Shown piece by piece: positions 4,966 to 13,023 of a stretch of 64,000 nt of DNA (positions within the stretch are counted from its first letter, which is position 1; every line of letters starts with the position of its first letter). The stretch lies in sequence record MH752840.1; one strand, given 5' to 3'. The stretch comes from Escherichia phage vB_EcoM-Pr121LW. A program made the position numbers and the translations under genes. The notes under the pieces were generated by a model, which saw only the letters and a program-made list of their open reading frames with translations, had not been told where the DNA came from and ran no database searches.

Positions 4966-5316
4966 TCAGTAGATGTTTTGTTTAATCTCTATTCCAAACT
5001 TCTTGAATGAGTCAGCAGCAAGCATAAATTTACGAGCTGCCGATGGATTAGAAGTATGTACGAAAATCTTCACGTTGTCAATCACTGGAGGCTTACCGAA
5101 TACAAATTTTTCCTCCAACATGGATAGGCAATCGTATCCTTCGAATACTTCTCCTAGGTCGTTGTCCATATGCCACTCAGAAACGCGTCTGTAGAGCTTT
5201 CCCTTATCGTTAATAAAATCCATAAACTCTGAGGAATTCTTCAGCCAAATAGCGTCTGGGAGTCCATAATTTGACGGATCTCTCAAATCATCCAGCCACA
5301 CAATCCACTTCTTCAT
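4966..5316 (-). CDS. hypothetical protein (possible RNA-repair-associated small domain)
   Basis: 116-aa ORF between the Sir2 and RNA ligase genes, overlapping the ligase stop; function inferred from context only. Confidence 0.4.
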   Translation of the reverse strand: MKKWIVWLDDLRDPSNYGLPDAIWLKNSSEFMDFINDKGKLYRRVSEWHMDNDLGEVFEGYDCLSMLEEKFVFGKPPVIDNVKIFVHTSNPSAARKFMLAADSFKKFGIEIKQNIY

Positions 5317-6248
5317 TGCATATAGTCCTCGTTGTGGAAATAGTAGTCCAGTATCTCACGACGCTCCTGCTCTAATAAGCAATTCCACACATCTTCTGTA
5401 TAGTTGCTACGAATAAATTTTACCATACCGTAAAACTCTTCGTCAACACGTTTAAAGATATCATCATCCCAAATCTTCCAAGCTTTACCCCTCATTACTG
5501 CCTTCCGTGCCAGATAGTATGGAGACTTGATCTTCAGCTGCAGATCATAAGGGTAGTAAGGCTTACGAATCATATACCCTTCACCTCTTGTTTCTGCAGC
5601 TAATTCTTTTGCATAGCTGAACGGAATTTCACGCACAGTGTGAGGACGTTTTGCACCAAGGTATTTGGCAATCCCATCTAAAGCTGCTTCTGGTAGCATT
5701 ATTCCAGAATCATTATATCTGCAACCTATCAAATATGCGCCATGATCTTCCTGAACAATATGCGGATCTGAAGGGTGGCAAATTTCAAACATGAATGTCA
5801 TGTTTTCATTGCCCATAACCTTCTTGATAAGATCTAAATTACCACATTGCTCCTTGATGGTTTCTTTTGCGAGGTTACAATATGGGGAATCAAGAGACCC
5901 GGTTGTTGAGAACAATAGTTCACCTTTATGAGATGATACCACACCGAGGAATCCGTTCTTTTTCTCTACCGCAGTAACAAGTTTACTGTCCGGTAGGTTG
6001 GTGGAGTTTTCTCCTAAGTTGAATACTTTTGTGAAAGGCCATGCCACAACATTCCCCTCATTGCCAACAACAATACCTCGGCACTCCAGTAAACGCGGAG
6101 ACAAATGCCACAGATCGTTGTAGAATACTTTTCTGGCATATTTATAGATCTTTAATCCAAGATCTGGATAATACCGACTGGTTACAAGACCTTTGTCTAC
6201 TAGGTCATCTGCATTAAAATACTTCATCATACGTTCCTCATTTGTCAT
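5313..6248 (-). CDS. RNA ligase 1 (T4 RnlA-like)
   Basis: 311 aa; LSPRLLECRGIVV and FTKVFNLGEN match T4 Rnl1 N-terminal motifs as I recall them; KxNG motif I (EKKNGFLG). Confidence 0.8.
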   Translation of the reverse strand: MTNEERMMKYFNADDLVDKGLVTSRYYPDLGLKIYKYARKVFYNDLWHLSPRLLECRGIVVGNEGNVVAWPFTKVFNLGENSTNLPDSKLVTAVEKKNGFLGVVSSHKGELLFSTTGSLDSPYCNLAKETIKEQCGNLDLIKKVMGNENMTFMFEICHPSDPHIVQEDHGAYLIGCRYNDSGIMLPEAALDGIAKYLGAKRPHTVREIPFSYAKELAAETRGEGYMIRKPYYPYDLQLKIKSPYYLARKAVMRGKAWKIWDDDIFKRVDEEFYGMVKFIRSNYTEDVWNCLLEQERREILDYYFHNEDYMQ

Positions 6249-6291
6249 TTTGTCAGTCTATCCTGCCACACAAATAACCTAGTGTCAACAC

Positions 6292-6320
6292 TTGAAATTA
6301 ACAAAACAGTTAGGTATACT
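6292..6320 (+). promoter_or_regulatory. sigma70-like promoter (TTGAAA-N17-TATACT)
   Basis: Consensus-like -35/-10 hexamers with 17-nt spacer upstream of the kinase gene. Confidence 0.45.
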
Positions 6321-6348
6321 ATCATTAAAATTAAAACGGAGGATTGCT

Positions 6349-6759
6349 ATGTCTAAAATGCTATATATCGTGCGTGGTCTGCCAGGGTCTGGCAAATCAA
6401 CACTGGCAAATGCGCTATCTTTAGAAGGTCTGTATCCACATTTTGAGAATGACATGTTTTGGTATGACGATGACGGCAATTACAACTGGGATGCAAGTAA
6501 AGTAACACTCGCAGCAAAATGGTGCAAAGATAACGTAGAAGATATGATGCGTATGGGATACGACCGTATCGTGGTAAGTAATACGTTTACAAAAGAAAAA
6601 CATGTGCAGGAATATGTTGACATGGCAATCAGTCATGGGTATAGTTATACCGTAATCGTGGTTGAAAACCGCCACGGTAATAAAAGCATTCATGATGTTC
6701 CAGACAAGGTTGTGGATCGTATGGAACGCCAGCTTAAAAACTGCATTAAACTTAAATGA
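6349..6759 (+). CDS. P-loop polynucleotide kinase-like protein
   Basis: Walker A GLPGSGKST near the N-terminus; start moved to the ATG at 6349 behind a GGAGG RBS. Confidence 0.6.
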   Translation: MSKMLYIVRGLPGSGKSTLANALSLEGLYPHFENDMFWYDDDGNYNWDASKVTLAAKWCKDNVEDMMRMGYDRIVVSNTFTKEKHVQEYVDMAISHGYSYTVIVVENRHGNKSIHDVPDKVVDRMERQLKNCIKLK

Positions 6760-6766
6760 GGAATGT

Positions 6767-7321
6767 ATGAAATACTTTGTAACAAGCGATACGCACTTTC
6801 TCCACCAGCGGGTCATGGAGTTTGATTCATGTCAAAAACACAGATCTCAATATGATCACAATCTTGACAGTATGAATGCGGGAATCATCACCGAGTGGAA
6901 CTCCGTTGTGTCACCTGCAGACACTGTGTTCCACCTGGGAGATATTGCGTGCACTAATGATAAGAATATCAACAACTTACTTCCAGATATTCTAAATATG
7001 TTGAACGGACATATTATTCTTGTTCGTGGCAACCATGACACAAGGACGACTGTCAGAATTATGAAAGAGTTCGGTCATGAGGTTGTAGATTATTACGAGC
7101 TTCGCCACAACAAGAATTTGATCTGTATGAGCCATTACCAGTTTGCAAAGTGGAACAGAAAGCCTCACGGATCAGTCCAACTGTTCGGTCATGCTCACGG
7201 AACCACACAACAGTTGTTTGGCAGGCAGCTTGATGTCGGTTGGGATGTGTGGGGGAGACTCTTACCATTAGAAGAGGCATACCGTATTGCAATGAGTTTT
7301 GATATTGACAGCAGGGAGTAA
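6767..7321 (+). CDS. calcineurin-like metallophosphoesterase
   Basis: VTSDTHF, HLGDIAC, GNHD and GHAH motifs; start moved to the ATG at 6767 behind a GAGGA RBS. Confidence 0.7.
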   Translation: MKYFVTSDTHFLHQRVMEFDSCQKHRSQYDHNLDSMNAGIITEWNSVVSPADTVFHLGDIACTNDKNINNLLPDILNMLNGHIILVRGNHDTRTTVRIMKEFGHEVVDYYELRHNKNLICMSHYQFAKWNRKPHGSVQLFGHAHGTTQQLFGRQLDVGWDVWGRLLPLEEAYRIAMSFDIDSRE

Positions 7322-7368
7322 TCCCTGCTATTTTAAAGAAAATTGCCACACAAGGAGAATCAGGAGAT

Positions 7369-7719
7369 ATGAAAGATGGGGATAAGCTGCTATATCTTAA
7401 AGTCCCCCTTGAAATACTATCTATGTCAAAAGTTTTGAATGACACAACTGGGGAGGTTGTTGTTCTTGACTTGTATGACAAGATTGTATACTGCTACCTG
7501 CACAACTGGTATAAGCTTGGAGGAAATTCCCGCTTCACACCAAGCACAAGGAAAATTGCAGCAGATGTTGGGATAAAGAAAACAAAAGCAGCAGCGTGCG
7601 TTAAAACTTTAGAATGTGCAGGAGTGGTTGAAACATCCACACAAGGGAGAGGTAAAAGATGCACATTTTCCAAAGTTTTGCCACCAGAAGAAGTTATTCG
7701 AATGTCAACAACTGGTTAG
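7369..7719 (+). CDS. HTH DNA-binding protein (candidate regulator or initiator)
   Basis: 116 aa with helix-turn-helix-like segment STRKIAADVGIKKTKAAACVKTLE; sits immediately upstream of the iteron array. Confidence 0.4.
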   Translation: MKDGDKLLYLKVPLEILSMSKVLNDTTGEVVVLDLYDKIVYCYLHNWYKLGGNSRFTPSTRKIAADVGIKKTKAAACVKTLECAGVVETSTQGRGKRCTFSKVLPPEEVIRMSTTG

Positions 7720-7794
7720 ACCAGTAAAAACTTAAATATCTGTACTATAAGGGTTTGTATGTTTTATGTTCACCATGGAACAGAAACTATTAAC

Positions 7795-7875
7795 TGTCCG
7801 TGATACGGACACCACTGTCCGTCACGCGGACACATCTGCCCGTAATACGGACACTAACTGTCCGTGATACGGACA
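7795..7875. repeat. four palindromic 17-bp sites at about 21-bp spacing
   Basis: TGTCCGTGATACGGACA at 7795-7811 and 7859-7875, variants at 7816-7832 and 7837-7853. Confidence 0.8.
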
Positions 7876-8010
7876 CATAAAGAATATAACTAAAATAACT
7901 AAATAATAAAAAATAAAAGATCTAGTACTTATGGTACTAAGTACATATACTTAACTTATGTAGAATATACTAGATCCTAAGTACCATGTTTTAAATTTAT
8001 TACTTTCTAT
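7876..8010. other. AT-rich tract with local palindromes (possible unwinding element)
   Basis: Strongly AT-rich stretch right after the iterons; contains GTACTTA ... TAAGTAC inverted repeats. Confidence 0.35.
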
Positions 8011-8013
8011 AGG

Positions 8014-8258
8014 TAGTGTCGGCCCTTCATTGGCACTCGCCTACGAGGGGCGAGATGCCGGGCCTCCATAGTGCACACATGCAGGTCTGTTAACATGTGT
8101 GGGAGCGAAGCGGCGCAGGCCAAAGGCCGAGCACTAATGTGGACCACCGACGAAAGCTTGCCAGCGCCGTAAGGAGTCGGTTGAGAGCCTCCCGCGCGAG
8201 TTTGGATAAAGTTTATGTGTGGAAACGGACAATGAGGCCCCTAAATCGCTCCACAGCC
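8014..8258 (+). ncRNA. candidate structured RNA or long structured leader
   Basis: GC-rich ORF-free segment with several perfect hairpins (CTCGCC/GGCGAG; CACACATG/CATGTGTG) in an otherwise AT-rich region. Confidence 0.25.
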
Positions 8259-8358
8259 ATATAAACTATACCAAGTAAGGCAATCGCACCAGTTTGATAG
8301 AAAAGCTCGTTACAAAGCGATACAGCGAGTTTTTCTATAACTTGAAGAGGAGGCAGCT

Positions 8359-8937
8359 ATGAGTCCACGCAAAGATGACCGTGAAAAGATTGCAAAACGT
8401 TATCAGAATGAAGAACAGATGGAGAAAACTTTCAAGTGGAAGCCAGGTTTCCAGCGTAATCATTCTAACGCTCGTGATCGTAAGCATCCGGATAAGTGGT
8501 TAACACCGCCAAATGATGGCATGCAGGTTGGTGATGAGAAGGAGCTGTCACCTGGAAAAGATGGCAACTACATTCGCACTAAGGAAGCAGGTCCAAAGGA
8601 TGACAGCTATCTTGTAGATAAGGTTCTTGATGGTATTGATGTGGATGTTGACACTGCACGAAACCTTTTTCTTGGTTGGTATCGTACAGGGTTTTTCGAC
8701 ATCAAGGCTATTCGTCGTGTTTGCGATATTAAAAAGTCTGCCTATGATGATGACTCTCTACATCGCACTCTGAGACAATACTCAGAGAGATACGGTCATC
8801 CAGTCATCACTATTGACGATATTAACGAAGTGATGTATCATGCAGAGGTTGTTGCAGGTAGATTCGGTGATGCATATCTCGGTATTCTTTCTGCAAAAGA
8901 TGAGGTAATGTTAAATAAAATTTACTATGAACGCTGA
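8359..8937 (+). CDS. hypothetical protein
   Basis: 192-aa ORF behind strong RBS GAGGAGG; basic N-terminus. Confidence 0.5.
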   Translation: MSPRKDDREKIAKRYQNEEQMEKTFKWKPGFQRNHSNARDRKHPDKWLTPPNDGMQVGDEKELSPGKDGNYIRTKEAGPKDDSYLVDKVLDGIDVDVDTARNLFLGWYRTGFFDIKAIRRVCDIKKSAYDDDSLHRTLRQYSERYGHPVITIDDINEVMYHAEVVAGRFGDAYLGILSAKDEVMLNKIYYER

Positions 8938-9455: not shown

Positions 9456-9474
9456 GGTTGTTTTCGTGTATCAT
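9447..9474 (+). promoter_or_regulatory. possible promoter (TTACAA-N16-TATCAT)
   Basis: Promoter-like hexamers immediately upstream of the GC-rich structured segment. Confidence 0.25.
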
Positions 9475-9504
9475 GATGAATATCCAATTTAAAGATGAAT
9501 TTGA

Positions 9505-9743
9505 TGGCTTTATCTCCGGATGCTTTGAAACAGGGTTCGGAGAAGACTGAGTTCCCCTCAGAGGGCTTGATAGTGCACCACACTTAAAATGGTAGGGGCA
9601 GCCAGCACATGACGATGTGACCCCAGCCAACCTGTAACAAGGTCGAGCCGAAGCGCGGGTAATAGGCCTCTGGTAACCCACTTGTTGGGTCTTGCTGGTC
9701 CAGGACGCTGGACAAGTCGCAGGGAATACCACCCTGCGGCGAA
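9505..9743 (+). ncRNA. candidate structured RNA
   Basis: GC-rich intergenic segment with multiple perfect hairpins (CCCTC-A-GAGGG; CCAG-GACG-CTGG; CAGGG-AATACCA-CCCTG); only low-complexity antisense ORFs. Confidence 0.25.
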
Positions 9744-9744
9744 C

Positions 9745-9773
9745 TTGACAATCAGTATTTGCTATGATAAAAT
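9745..9773 (+). promoter_or_regulatory. sigma70-like promoter (TTGACA-N17-TAAAAT)
   Basis: Consensus hexamers with 17-nt spacer upstream of the 9802 gene. Confidence 0.5.
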
Positions 9774-9801
9774 CCACCTATCACGTGATAATGGAGGAAA
9801 C

Positions 9802-10833: not shown

Positions 10834-10930
10834 GCTAGGTAAGCCCTTTGGCAAGGGCGAGGATTTTTAATCCTGAAAATAGACGAGGTAGTCGTTGAAT
10901 ACATAGGTGGTTCGATTCCACCACCTAGCA
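10834..10930 (+). tRNA. atypical tRNA-like element (anticodon possibly TTT; about 29-nt variable region)
   Basis: Acceptor GCTAGGT/ACCTAGC, D-arm GCCC..GGGC and T-arm GGTGGTTCGATTCCACC fold, but anticodon stem is 4 bp plus a mismatch and total length about 97 nt. Confidence 0.3.
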
Positions 10931-10937
10931 CCTTTTT

Positions 10938-12281: not shown

Positions 12282-12706
12282 TGTCTAAGATTTACGGACC
12301 GTGTTCTGAAAAGCAGAAGATGATCCTCGAAAACGATGCAGATATTTTGGTAATCGGCGGTGCCGCAGGGTCTGGCAAGTCGTTCCTCTTGCAGTTGATG
12401 CCGCTTAAAATTATCGATGACCCCCACAGCTCTGTGGTTATGTTCCGAAGAACAACCCCACAGTTGGAAGGTGAGGGTGGACTATGGCCTAAAGCAGTAG
12501 CTATTTATAGCGATCTGCCTGAAAACATTAAGCCAAAGTTCAGAGAGAAGGATCATAAGTTCATTTTTCCACGGTTTGATCCGAACACTGGCAAGTGGGA
12601 TAGAAGCAAAAAGGGAGCTGTTGTAAAATACTGCCACATGGAGTATGTACAAGATAAGCTTAACCATCAAGGGCTTGAGTACACCATGGTTTGCTTCGAT
12701 GAGGGT
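12281..12706 (+). CDS. terL: terminase large subunit, exon 1 (ATPase domain)
   Basis: Walker A GGAAGSGKS, Walker B-like MVCFDE; ORF stops at TAA 12707-12709, taken as the first intron codon. Confidence 0.7.
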
Positions 12707-13023
12707 TAATTTGTAGCTCTCGTAAAACCTCCCTAATTGCGGGGAAATCTTTACTATTAATACCACCAACCTGTCATGGTAACATGATAGAGGCTTCGAA
12801 GAGAGATCGAAGGTATGGTAACAGTGTGTTAATTTAGATAATCCGCAGCGAAGCATCCGAGAGGATGAACGTTCAACGACTAGTCGAAAGACGTAGAATC
12901 AAGCGATTCGAAACGGGAGGGTAAGCGGTTGTTGTCGCTTATAAGATATAGTCTGGTCTGCATGGAGACATGCAGCTGCCTGAAAAATGGCGGGGCAAGA
13001 CTAGCGACCTTGCCCGAACATAG
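12707..13023 (+). ncRNA. group I self-splicing intron (no internal ORF); boundaries approximate
   Basis: Conserved core motifs GTTCAACGACTAGTCG (12871-12886) and AAGATATAGTC (12943-12953); splits terL; 5' exon ends in U, intron ends in G. Confidence 0.6.

Follow-up and report, generated by a model that had tools for sequence, protein, structure and literature searches.

The window analyzed here is a 64,000-nucleotide stretch of Escherichia phage vB_EcoM-Pr121LW (MH752840.1), in which a gene for a winged-helix protein of 116 amino acids (aa), referred to here by its name in phage Murica, gp208, is followed by a gene-free gap. Our data indicate that the gp208 gene and this gap probably constitute an iteron-type replication-origin module. 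An origin is supported because gp208 is homologous to the N-terminal domain of RepA_N-type initiators, because the iterons abut the lowest-GC DNA of the genome, and because plasmid-like relatives share the order of the parts. An earlier interpretation of this DNA (the sequence-only reading) had offered an origin, an operator, or a centromere as options; the origin has since gained support, the operator is kept as a rival below, and the centromere was dropped since no partition ATPase or other support for it lies nearby. Over the 1,061 bp around the locus, identity with Escherichia phage Murica, an rV5-like Vequintavirus, is 100%, and 118 phage records match this stretch at 88-98% identity, every one of them a Vequintavirus. 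The window corresponds to the reverse complement of approximately 7.8-71.8 kb of Murica, whose full genome comprises 135,391 bp; window positions 7800-8300 correspond to about 63.5-64.0 kb of Murica. In the literature searched we found neither the origin, nor the structured element described below, nor its link to 13-kb circular elements, and no origin is defined for Vequintavirus. Part of the origin reading was anticipated by the name "replication initiation protein", which is that of phrog_12838, the PHROGs family of gp208, and which RefSeq applies because of this family; GenBank records name gp208 "putative transcriptional regulator".

We found that the gap measures 639 bp (7720-8358), in agreement with the approximately 640 bp of the sequence-only reading, which had also correctly placed a small helix-turn-helix (HTH) gene, that of gp208, upstream of a set of repeats. 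The first iteron begins 72 bp past the HTH stop codon, and the array consists of four 22-nucleotide (nt) units (7791-7812, 7812-7833, 7833-7854, and 7855-7876) with start-to-start distances of 21, 21, and 22 bp, i.e., two helical turns, which bears out the earlier claim of a phasing of about 21 bp. The four 17-bp palindromes, TGTCCG-N5-CGGACA, lie at exactly the sites named before (7795-7811, 7816-7832, 7837-7853, and 7859-7875), with 0, 1, 1, and 0 mismatches to the consensus TGTCCGTNNNACGGACA. No further match to the palindrome was found in the 64-kb window at up to two mismatches, nor any further copy in the whole Murica genome at up to one mismatch. The locus thus contains semi-palindromic direct-repeat iterons beside a rep-type gene. 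When 11 Vequintaviruses were aligned, including one whose HTH protein has just 90% identity, the 20 bp ahead of iteron 1 proved freely variable whereas the iterons, the AT-rich tract, and the GC-rich block that follow are near-invariant. Most isolates carry four iterons, A135 and V18 carry three, and navn carries two; the number shifts by whole 21-bp units only, and the junction with the AT-rich tract stays intact. No sigma-70-type promoter overlaps the iterons; a weak leftward site ends 19 bp from iteron 1. Certain GenBank records label the array merely as repeat_region. As separate observations on the array, position 1 of MG065672.1 ("Campylobacter phage A141", an unverified assembly) is window position 7791, the first base of iteron 1, which could reflect an assembler break at a repeat or a real end. 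The iterons all terminate in GACAC, giving 5'-GTGTC-3' on the minus strand at 7808-7812, 7829-7833, 7850-7854, and 7872-7876, and an extra GTGTC on the plus strand at 8016-8020 opens the structured element; GTGTC is a recognition sequence of the T7-primase type, a specificity that the rV5 primase might share, and coincidence is possible.

The last base of iteron 4 is also the first of the AT-rich tract. Among all 120-bp windows of the genome, the one with the lowest GC content lies here (19.2% versus 43.6% overall; 21-26% in 100-bp windows), so the strongly AT-rich segment reported next to the palindromes is confirmed. Furthermore, it contains the least stable 100-bp duplex of the window, with a free energy (dG) of -102 compared to a mean of -134 (standard deviation (sd) 5.5), i.e., 5.7 sd below. 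The tract comprises two tandem copies of ATAACTAAA, A-tracts, and an inverted-repeat segment between GATC sites at 7919 and 7973. It is near-invariant in all 11 phages, the most divergent one included, and the promoter scan found no sigma-70 promoter within it. The inverted repeats of the sequence-only reading are present (7919-7927/7967-7975 and 7931-7941/7977-7987); they fold no better than shuffled sequence (z = -1.06), and a cruciform was rejected for this reason. That reading was right about iterons and AT-rich DNA in the gap, but it ended the feature at 8010 and so dropped the second half of the gap (8003-8345), which is taken up by a conserved, GC-rich structured element.

We found that the closest solved structure to gp208 is the N-terminal domain of RepA from the Vibrio cholerae satellite PLE (phage-inducible chromosomal island-like element), PDB 4RO3. 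The family profile matched 4RO3 over the whole domain (E 4e-16), far above every other solved structure, and the single gp208 sequence matched it at E 3e-6. An AlphaFold2 (AF2) model built from an alignment of 20 family members reached a predicted local distance difference test (pLDDT) score of 80.9, whereas the single sequence gave an unusable pLDDT of 39. Foldseek placed 4RO3, 4PQL, 4PT7, and 5KBJ at ranks 1-6 for this model with template modeling (TM) scores of 0.51-0.64, and CodY and MarR-type regulators rank below these RepA N-terminal domains; 4PQL, 4PT7, and 5KBJ are staphylococcal, the last being a Rep-DNA complex. In Pfam, gp208 falls just under the cut-offs for DUF6945 (27.4 bits, cut-off 28) and HTH_36 (24.5 bits, cut-off 25); neither RepA_N (PF06970) nor Rep_3 is among its listed Pfam matches at E up to 1, and no terminase family was matched in Pfam or PHROGs. 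No paper on DUF6945 was found in the literature. Judged by profile and predicted fold, gp208 is homologous to the origin-binding N-terminal domain of RepA_N-type initiators and stands alone as a protein, and the model matches the origin-binding module alone in size and fold. PLE replication depends on RepA, a protein structurally of the RepA_N type that binds to semi-palindromic iterons in the PLE origin; RepA_N-like origin binders have been noted as rare in Gram-negative systems (Barth et al., PMC7145576). The N-terminal 120 or so residues of pSK41 Rep bind four Rep boxes, tetramerize, and bend DNA, and pPR9 is a functional initiator with an HTH_36 N-terminal module of phage origin (PMC5703833).

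Straight after the lowest-GC tract, the GC-rich structured element contains the highest-GC 200 bp of the genome (60.5%). It consists of a first hairpin (8022-8049) and a multi-branched core (8093-8249) and is strongly conserved among the phages aligned, most relatives carrying an 18-nt indel that adds a hairpin. A distant BLAST search of complete E. coli genomes located this block in an unannotated part of circular "plasmids" of 13.2-13.7 kb, and also in a 39.6-kb record that is three units long, holds the shared element three times, and is possibly a trimer. The records of this family are NZ_CP020521.1 (13,689 bp; E. coli strain 190), CP148565.1, NZ_CP035869.1, CP134895.1, NZ_CP178698.1, and NZ_CP043822.1. 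The block is the main DNA that these elements have in common with the phage. NZ_CP020521.1 encodes major capsid, tape-measure, baseplate-like, and neck-like proteins, the latter three with 25-50% identity to Murica gp048, gp047, and gp055, and no terminase gene is found in the annotation of the 13-kb elements. It also encodes its own 303-aa winged-helix protein, which matches PHROGs "replication initiation" families and lies downstream of a 1.6-kb non-coding region. This region holds, in order, seven iterons, three AT-rich 36-nt repeats, and the shared structured element, which is located just 5' of the promoters of the operon holding the Rep-like gene. The iterons of the element are semi-palindromic, CGG-TAAATATTT-CCG, and form tandem runs with a 23-bp period. 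The 13-kb element contains no palindromes of the phage type, and the 64-kb window contains no iterons of the element type; each replicon has iterons of its own, while the structured element occurs in both.

Since the 13-kb molecules are closed circles in finished assemblies, their non-coding region is the obvious candidate for a vegetative origin. Self-replicating relatives with the same order of parts thus support an origin in the phage, and by analogy this parallel in layout provides the strongest comparative argument for one. From their gene content, the 13-kb elements look like plasmid-borne satellites of rV5-like phages; no paper was found on them, nor on phage satellites of Vequintaviruses. 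As a separate observation, a 51-58-bp segment at Murica 103,915-103,965 resembles a portion of the Rep-like gene that the 13-kb element carries, and an inverted second match to the same segment lies at Murica 101,732-101,789.

Comparison of the phage and 13-kb copies clearly points to a folded single strand. In their joint alignment, 97.8% of cells in the multi-branched structure are paired compared to 32-51% with slid partners; pairs changed on both sides number 7 versus 0-2 with slid partners, and none of 500 shuffles reached 7, although these statistics overstate independence because only about three independent lineages contribute. One 6-bp helix reads ACCGAC/GTCGGT in phages and GCTGCC/GGCAGC in four 13-kb elements, and the first hairpin contains two double changes. 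Among 10 phages, RNAalifold predicted a long-range helix with one covarying pair that is rich in G-U pairs and is therefore possible on the plus strand only. A covariance model of the element matched Vequintaviruses and 13-kb elements only, the latter at 144-145 bits, and found no copy near the homologous genes of Pseudomonas phage phiPMW, Henunavirus, or metagenomic phages. Rfam 15 gave no match at gathering thresholds, and the best hit of a permissive scan was rli43 (24 bits versus a threshold of 100). An 18-mer of the element occurred in 95 stretches of genome contigs, mostly from taxa unrelated to enterobacteria and taken as chance; the covariance model gave no match on one of these loci (Kosakonia) or on one viral contig. 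Past the element, a hairpin followed by a T-run retains its stem through G-U changes in 10 phages and might possibly form the 3' end of a transcript of the element; the terminator scan does not call it.

We asked whether the pairing of protein and repeats extends beyond these phages. Exhaustive searches found close relatives of gp208 in Vequintavirus alone, and single-protein searches returned almost only this genus. Distant relatives (22-35% identity) were reached through intermediate homologues and the profile in Pseudomonas phage phiPMW, Erwinia Henunavirus, and metagenomic phages; a related-locus search of viral contigs with one distant homologue as the query gave no match. Each distant homologue gene lies at or next to a divergent transcription point with phased repeats and AT-rich DNA. 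phiPMW contains three copies of GGACAAAATGTCC, the last two 23 bp apart, Henunavirus (Erwinia phage pEp_SNUABM_01) contains two copies of the palindrome TGCTCAATTTGAGCA, 23 bp apart, and the metagenomic loci contain 21-nt direct repeats, not clearly palindromic, 22 bp apart. The repeat sequence varies from genus to genus, as expected from co-evolution of a protein and its site, which supports the pairing of protein and repeats. The repeats lie upstream of the gene in the distant phages versus downstream in Vequintavirus. At four of five homologue loci the neighbors are as in window 5313-7321, with an RnlA-type RNA ligase beside the winged-helix gene; three of the four also have a P-loop polynucleotide-kinase-like protein, and two have a metallophosphoesterase. 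These neighbors lie at or near the divergent transcription point, and three of these four loci encode them on the opposite strand; the fifth locus lacks them and has a DNA polymerase A gene downstream. Several of the distant, longer homologues end in acidic C-terminal tails with a terminal aromatic residue (DEDPDAPF, YYDTEEPF, and DMEEWI), which recall the tails of SSB, T7 gp2.5, and T7 gp4 that contact replisome proteins. Vequintavirus gp208 does not have such a tail. The authors of the phiPMW genome placed the GC-skew minimum and a putative origin 2 kb from the homologue gene (PMC5587285).

Together, these features suggest how an origin at this locus might work. One gp208 dimer would bind each 17-bp palindrome; since the palindromes are two helical turns apart, the dimers would lie on one face of the DNA, able to contact each other and bend it. 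Strain would then pass to the AT-rich tract at the end of iteron 4, and the tract would open. The GC-rich element would act as a folded plus strand, which could be a transcript or exposed single-stranded DNA, and the fold would offer a place for loading or priming to a T7-like replisome (primase-helicase, PolA-type polymerase, and Pif1-like helicase). Since gp208 has no effector domain, recruitment must use DNA remodeling, a cis element, or another partner, and gp208 may double as a local repressor. Scans of the gap for sigma-70 promoters, terminators, DnaA boxes, and sites for integration host factor (IHF) gave nothing convincing, and 7700-8360 contains no exact DnaA box and no IHF consensus; an origin here would therefore be DnaA-independent. 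A more specific version of this reading, which we put forward tentatively and with considerable doubt, is a three-part origin whose third part represents an undescribed class of structured RNA or single-stranded DNA shared with an undescribed family of approximately 13-kb satellites. Each replicon would have its own binding specificity, and both would need the same cis element for loading of the helper replisome, or for packaging. A binder reduced to the N-terminal domain would then need no effector and would suffice as an initiator because the cis element does the recruiting.

Several points weigh against an origin. gp208 ends approximately 25 residues past the wing and, as the alignment shows, lacks the tail of longer homologues and has no effector domain; without a C-terminal domain, it may by itself be a mere DNA binder. 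The C-terminal domain of pSK41 Rep, the part that gp208 lacks, binds DnaG and is essential for replication (PMC5703833). Within the phage collection, only one genus has the protein family and its DNA, so initiation must proceed differently in other Vequintavirinae. The isolate navn is viable with just two iterons, and four are thus not required. The shared structured element could serve packaging, since the 13-kb elements need a packaging signal. Finally, the cumulative GC skew of Murica has its global minimum at approximately 65.5 kb, 1.5 kb from the iterons, and this minimum coincides with the divergent transcription point, not with the iterons; the authors of the rV5 genome described the same switch, explained every skew change by transcription, and did not define an origin (PMC3606486). 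The skew is compatible with the origin model yet not diagnostic of it. The only other long non-coding region, Murica 102,262-104,817 (approximately 2.5 kb, almost gene-free, outside the window), lies at the other skew switch and holds two of the four lowest-GC windows together with inverted repeats. As an alternative origin it was rejected because it contains no phased iteron array. The inverted match to the Rep-like gene mentioned above lies just outside this gene-poor region.

The alternative that survives best is a local transcriptional switch, in which gp208 would be a repressor or roadblock acting on four tandem operators with no role in replication initiation. It would either stop read-through from its own promoter into the downstream element and the late-arm genes or control the leftward antisense promoter. 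In favor of such a switch, the Erwinia palindromes have a -10-like TATAGT on one side and the ribosome-binding site (RBS) of the homologue on the other, an operator-like position that also counts against an origin, and those of phiPMW are upstream of the gene, within the divergent promoter region. A protein that consists of a DNA-binding domain only, its GenBank name, the promoter-like site adjoining iteron 1, and the viability of navn all fit as well. We nevertheless consider a switch without replication function unlikely, since in this phage the sites follow the gene without overlapping any promoter that could be detected, the motif has no other copy in the genome and thus defines no regulon, and the nearest relatives in both sequence and fold are initiators, not regulators. 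A switch would also leave unexplained both the lowest-GC tract beside the sites and the tripartite order in the plasmid-like relatives. Given that autoregulation and origin binding commonly coexist, evidence for autoregulation does not exclude an origin.

We also considered whether the GC-rich element might be an independent non-coding RNA (ncRNA) gene, serving host takeover or, in the 13-kb elements, control of the Rep-like operon, and adjoining the iterons by synteny only; the iterons would then control its expression. The covariation, the G-U pairs specific to the plus strand, the hairpin with a T-run on the 3' side, the tRNA cluster 2 kb downstream, and the position of the block ahead of the promoters of the Rep-like operon would all suit an RNA gene. 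However, no promoter was detected upstream in the AT-rich tract, the element belongs to no Rfam family, and the order of iterons, AT-rich DNA, and element is the same in two otherwise different replicons, which suggests a functional link; an independent RNA gene therefore seems improbable to us. Least probable of all, and very doubtful, is a pac region in which gp208 would be a small-terminase-like marker for the headful terminase and the satellite-like elements would copy the neighboring element: Vequintaviruses are circularly permuted with headful (pac) packaging (PMC3606486, PMC13211470), the annotation lists no small terminase, the large terminase gene follows 4.4 kb downstream of the locus, the 13-kb elements encode capsid and tail parts without an annotated terminase and so need a packaging signal of the helper, the structured block is the main shared DNA, and MG065672.1 starts exactly at iteron 1, but the iterons are wholly different in phage and 13-kb elements and cannot be a shared terminase target, the relatives of gp208 are RepA_N initiators with no terminase family matched, the compensatory changes suggest a folded single strand unlike duplex pac sites, and other records begin at unrelated positions.

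Table. Features at the candidate origin locus, with window positions and the basis of each assignment
Feature	Position	Strand	Basis
Sigma-70-like promoter of the HTH gene, TTGACA-18-TATTTT with TG	7305..7334	+	Consensus match only, 10/12
Gene for the 116-aa winged-helix protein (Murica gp208)	7369..7719	+	Profile, AF2 model, Foldseek
Promoter-like site facing left, TGAACA-17-TATAGT, past the HTH stop codon and ahead of iteron 1	7744..7772	-	9/12, weak
Four 21/22-bp iterons, each with a 17-bp palindrome	7791..7876		Repeat search
AT-rich tract, putative DNA-unwinding element	7876..8002		GC content and duplex stability
GC-rich structured element, RNA or single-stranded DNA	8003..8290	+	Covariation, GC content
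Hairpin then TTTTT, just ahead of the RBS of the gene at 8359	8297..8338	+	Inverted repeat
192-aa gene downstream of the gap, function unassigned	8359..8937	+	phrog_12226 (unknown function)

Transcription diverges near the locus. To the left of 6248 the genes point leftward and include those for an RnlA-like RNA ligase, Sir2, a MazG-like protein, and others. From 6292 all genes run rightward: a P-loop kinase, the metallophosphoesterase, the HTH gene, the gap, four small genes, and a tRNA cluster, followed by spanins, the large terminase, and structural genes. The spacer of the predicted HTH-gene promoter overlaps the terminator hairpin of the upstream phosphoesterase gene; at the equivalent place the rV5 record annotates promoter P76 and the Murica record a terminator. 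The leftward promoter-like site has a conserved -10 and a variable -35 in the 11 phages, and it would yield an RNA antisense to the HTH gene. The 192-aa gene downstream of the gap has no match in Pfam, NCBIfam, or PDB and is found in Vequintavirus records only; its membership in the module is hypothetical. A "split Rep", in which this gene would supply the missing C-terminal domain, was dropped since no homology was detectable and the neighbor is not conserved at the loci of the distant homologues.

Other features of the window and its relatives stand apart from the module. A group I intron (Rfam, 84 bits) lies within the large terminase gene at 12697-12975, and terminase introns were already described in the rV5 genome paper. 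A 99-nt tRNA-like gene at 10834-10932 was given a four-base anticodon (atcc) and no assignable amino acid by ARAGORN; the Murica record names it tRNA-OTHER (Asp|Gly). A second gene-free stretch, at approximately 9456-9798, has a GC-rich core (55-59% at 9550-9750) that ranks with the top 200-bp windows of the genome for GC content, and it might be another structured element. In PLSDB, the "plasmid" CP057073.1 (137,565 bp), from an E. coli culture obtained from cattle feces, is a complete Vequintavirus genome; the phage may have been in a carrier state or may have been co-purified.

rV5-like phages are among the most often isolated E. coli phages and are widely proposed for therapy and biocontrol. 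The locus provides a precise origin candidate of approximately 500 bp together with a candidate binder, and would extend RepA_N-like origin binders to a lytic coliphage in the form of a minimal binding domain. The 13-kb elements suggest a possible helper-satellite pair which, if true, would make the shared and private parts of an origin separable by experiment. A defined origin would help phage engineering and the construction of infection-dependent replicons.

Among known systems, the RepA_N and PLE initiators show the closest likeness, with a winged-helix N-terminal DNA-binding domain of approximately 115-120 aa homologous to gp208. RepA_N initiators (Rep of the Staphylococcus plasmids pSK41 and pTZ2162, and PLE RepA) use semi-palindromic direct-repeat sites, and the four Rep boxes of pSK41 compare with the four iterons here. 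The origin of RepA_N replicons lies next to or inside the rep gene; here the iterons are downstream of the gene and not within it. As with PLE, a T7-like phage replisome with an SF1B/Pif1-type helicase is found alongside. gp208 differs in lacking the C-terminal effector domain and in falling under HTH_36/DUF6945 rather than Pfam RepA_N, and for these reasons we do not file it as a RepA_N member. The central spacer of the iterons is TGATA, TCACG, or TAATA here and a poly-A tract in RepA_N systems, the host is a lytic Gram-negative myovirus, and an extra structured element follows the AT-rich tract.

The origin of phage lambda contains four iterons with internal dyad symmetry, bound by dimers of the O N-terminal domain and followed by an AT-rich unwinding region; it lies inside the O gene, nearby transcription activates it, and the C-terminal domain of O recruits P-DnaB. 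In the present locus the iterons lie outside the gene and gp208 lacks a recruiting C-terminal domain. A lambda O-type initiator was rejected, given only weak PHROGs O-like matches (E 0.03), no match to the Pfam O family, and iterons outside the gene. Rep_3 plasmids (pPS10, RK2, F, and P1) combine iterons of approximately 17-22 bp, phased at about 22 bp, with an AT-rich unwinding element and a GC-rich segment; their initiator has a two-winged-helix fold and represses its own gene, the non-palindromic direct repeats are bound by monomers, and DnaA boxes are used. The iterons here differ in being palindromic, no DnaA box was found, and Rep_3 is not among the Pfam matches listed for gp208. In RSF1010 ssiA/ssiB, G4-type G sites, ColE1 RNA II, and the R-loops of T4 oriF/oriG, a folded strand or transcript beside an unwinding element primes or loads replication. 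The GC-rich element, whose role is putative, has no sequence or Rfam similarity to these single-strand-initiation and primer-RNA origins. By analogy, the module described here most likely works like RepA_N and lambda-type origins.

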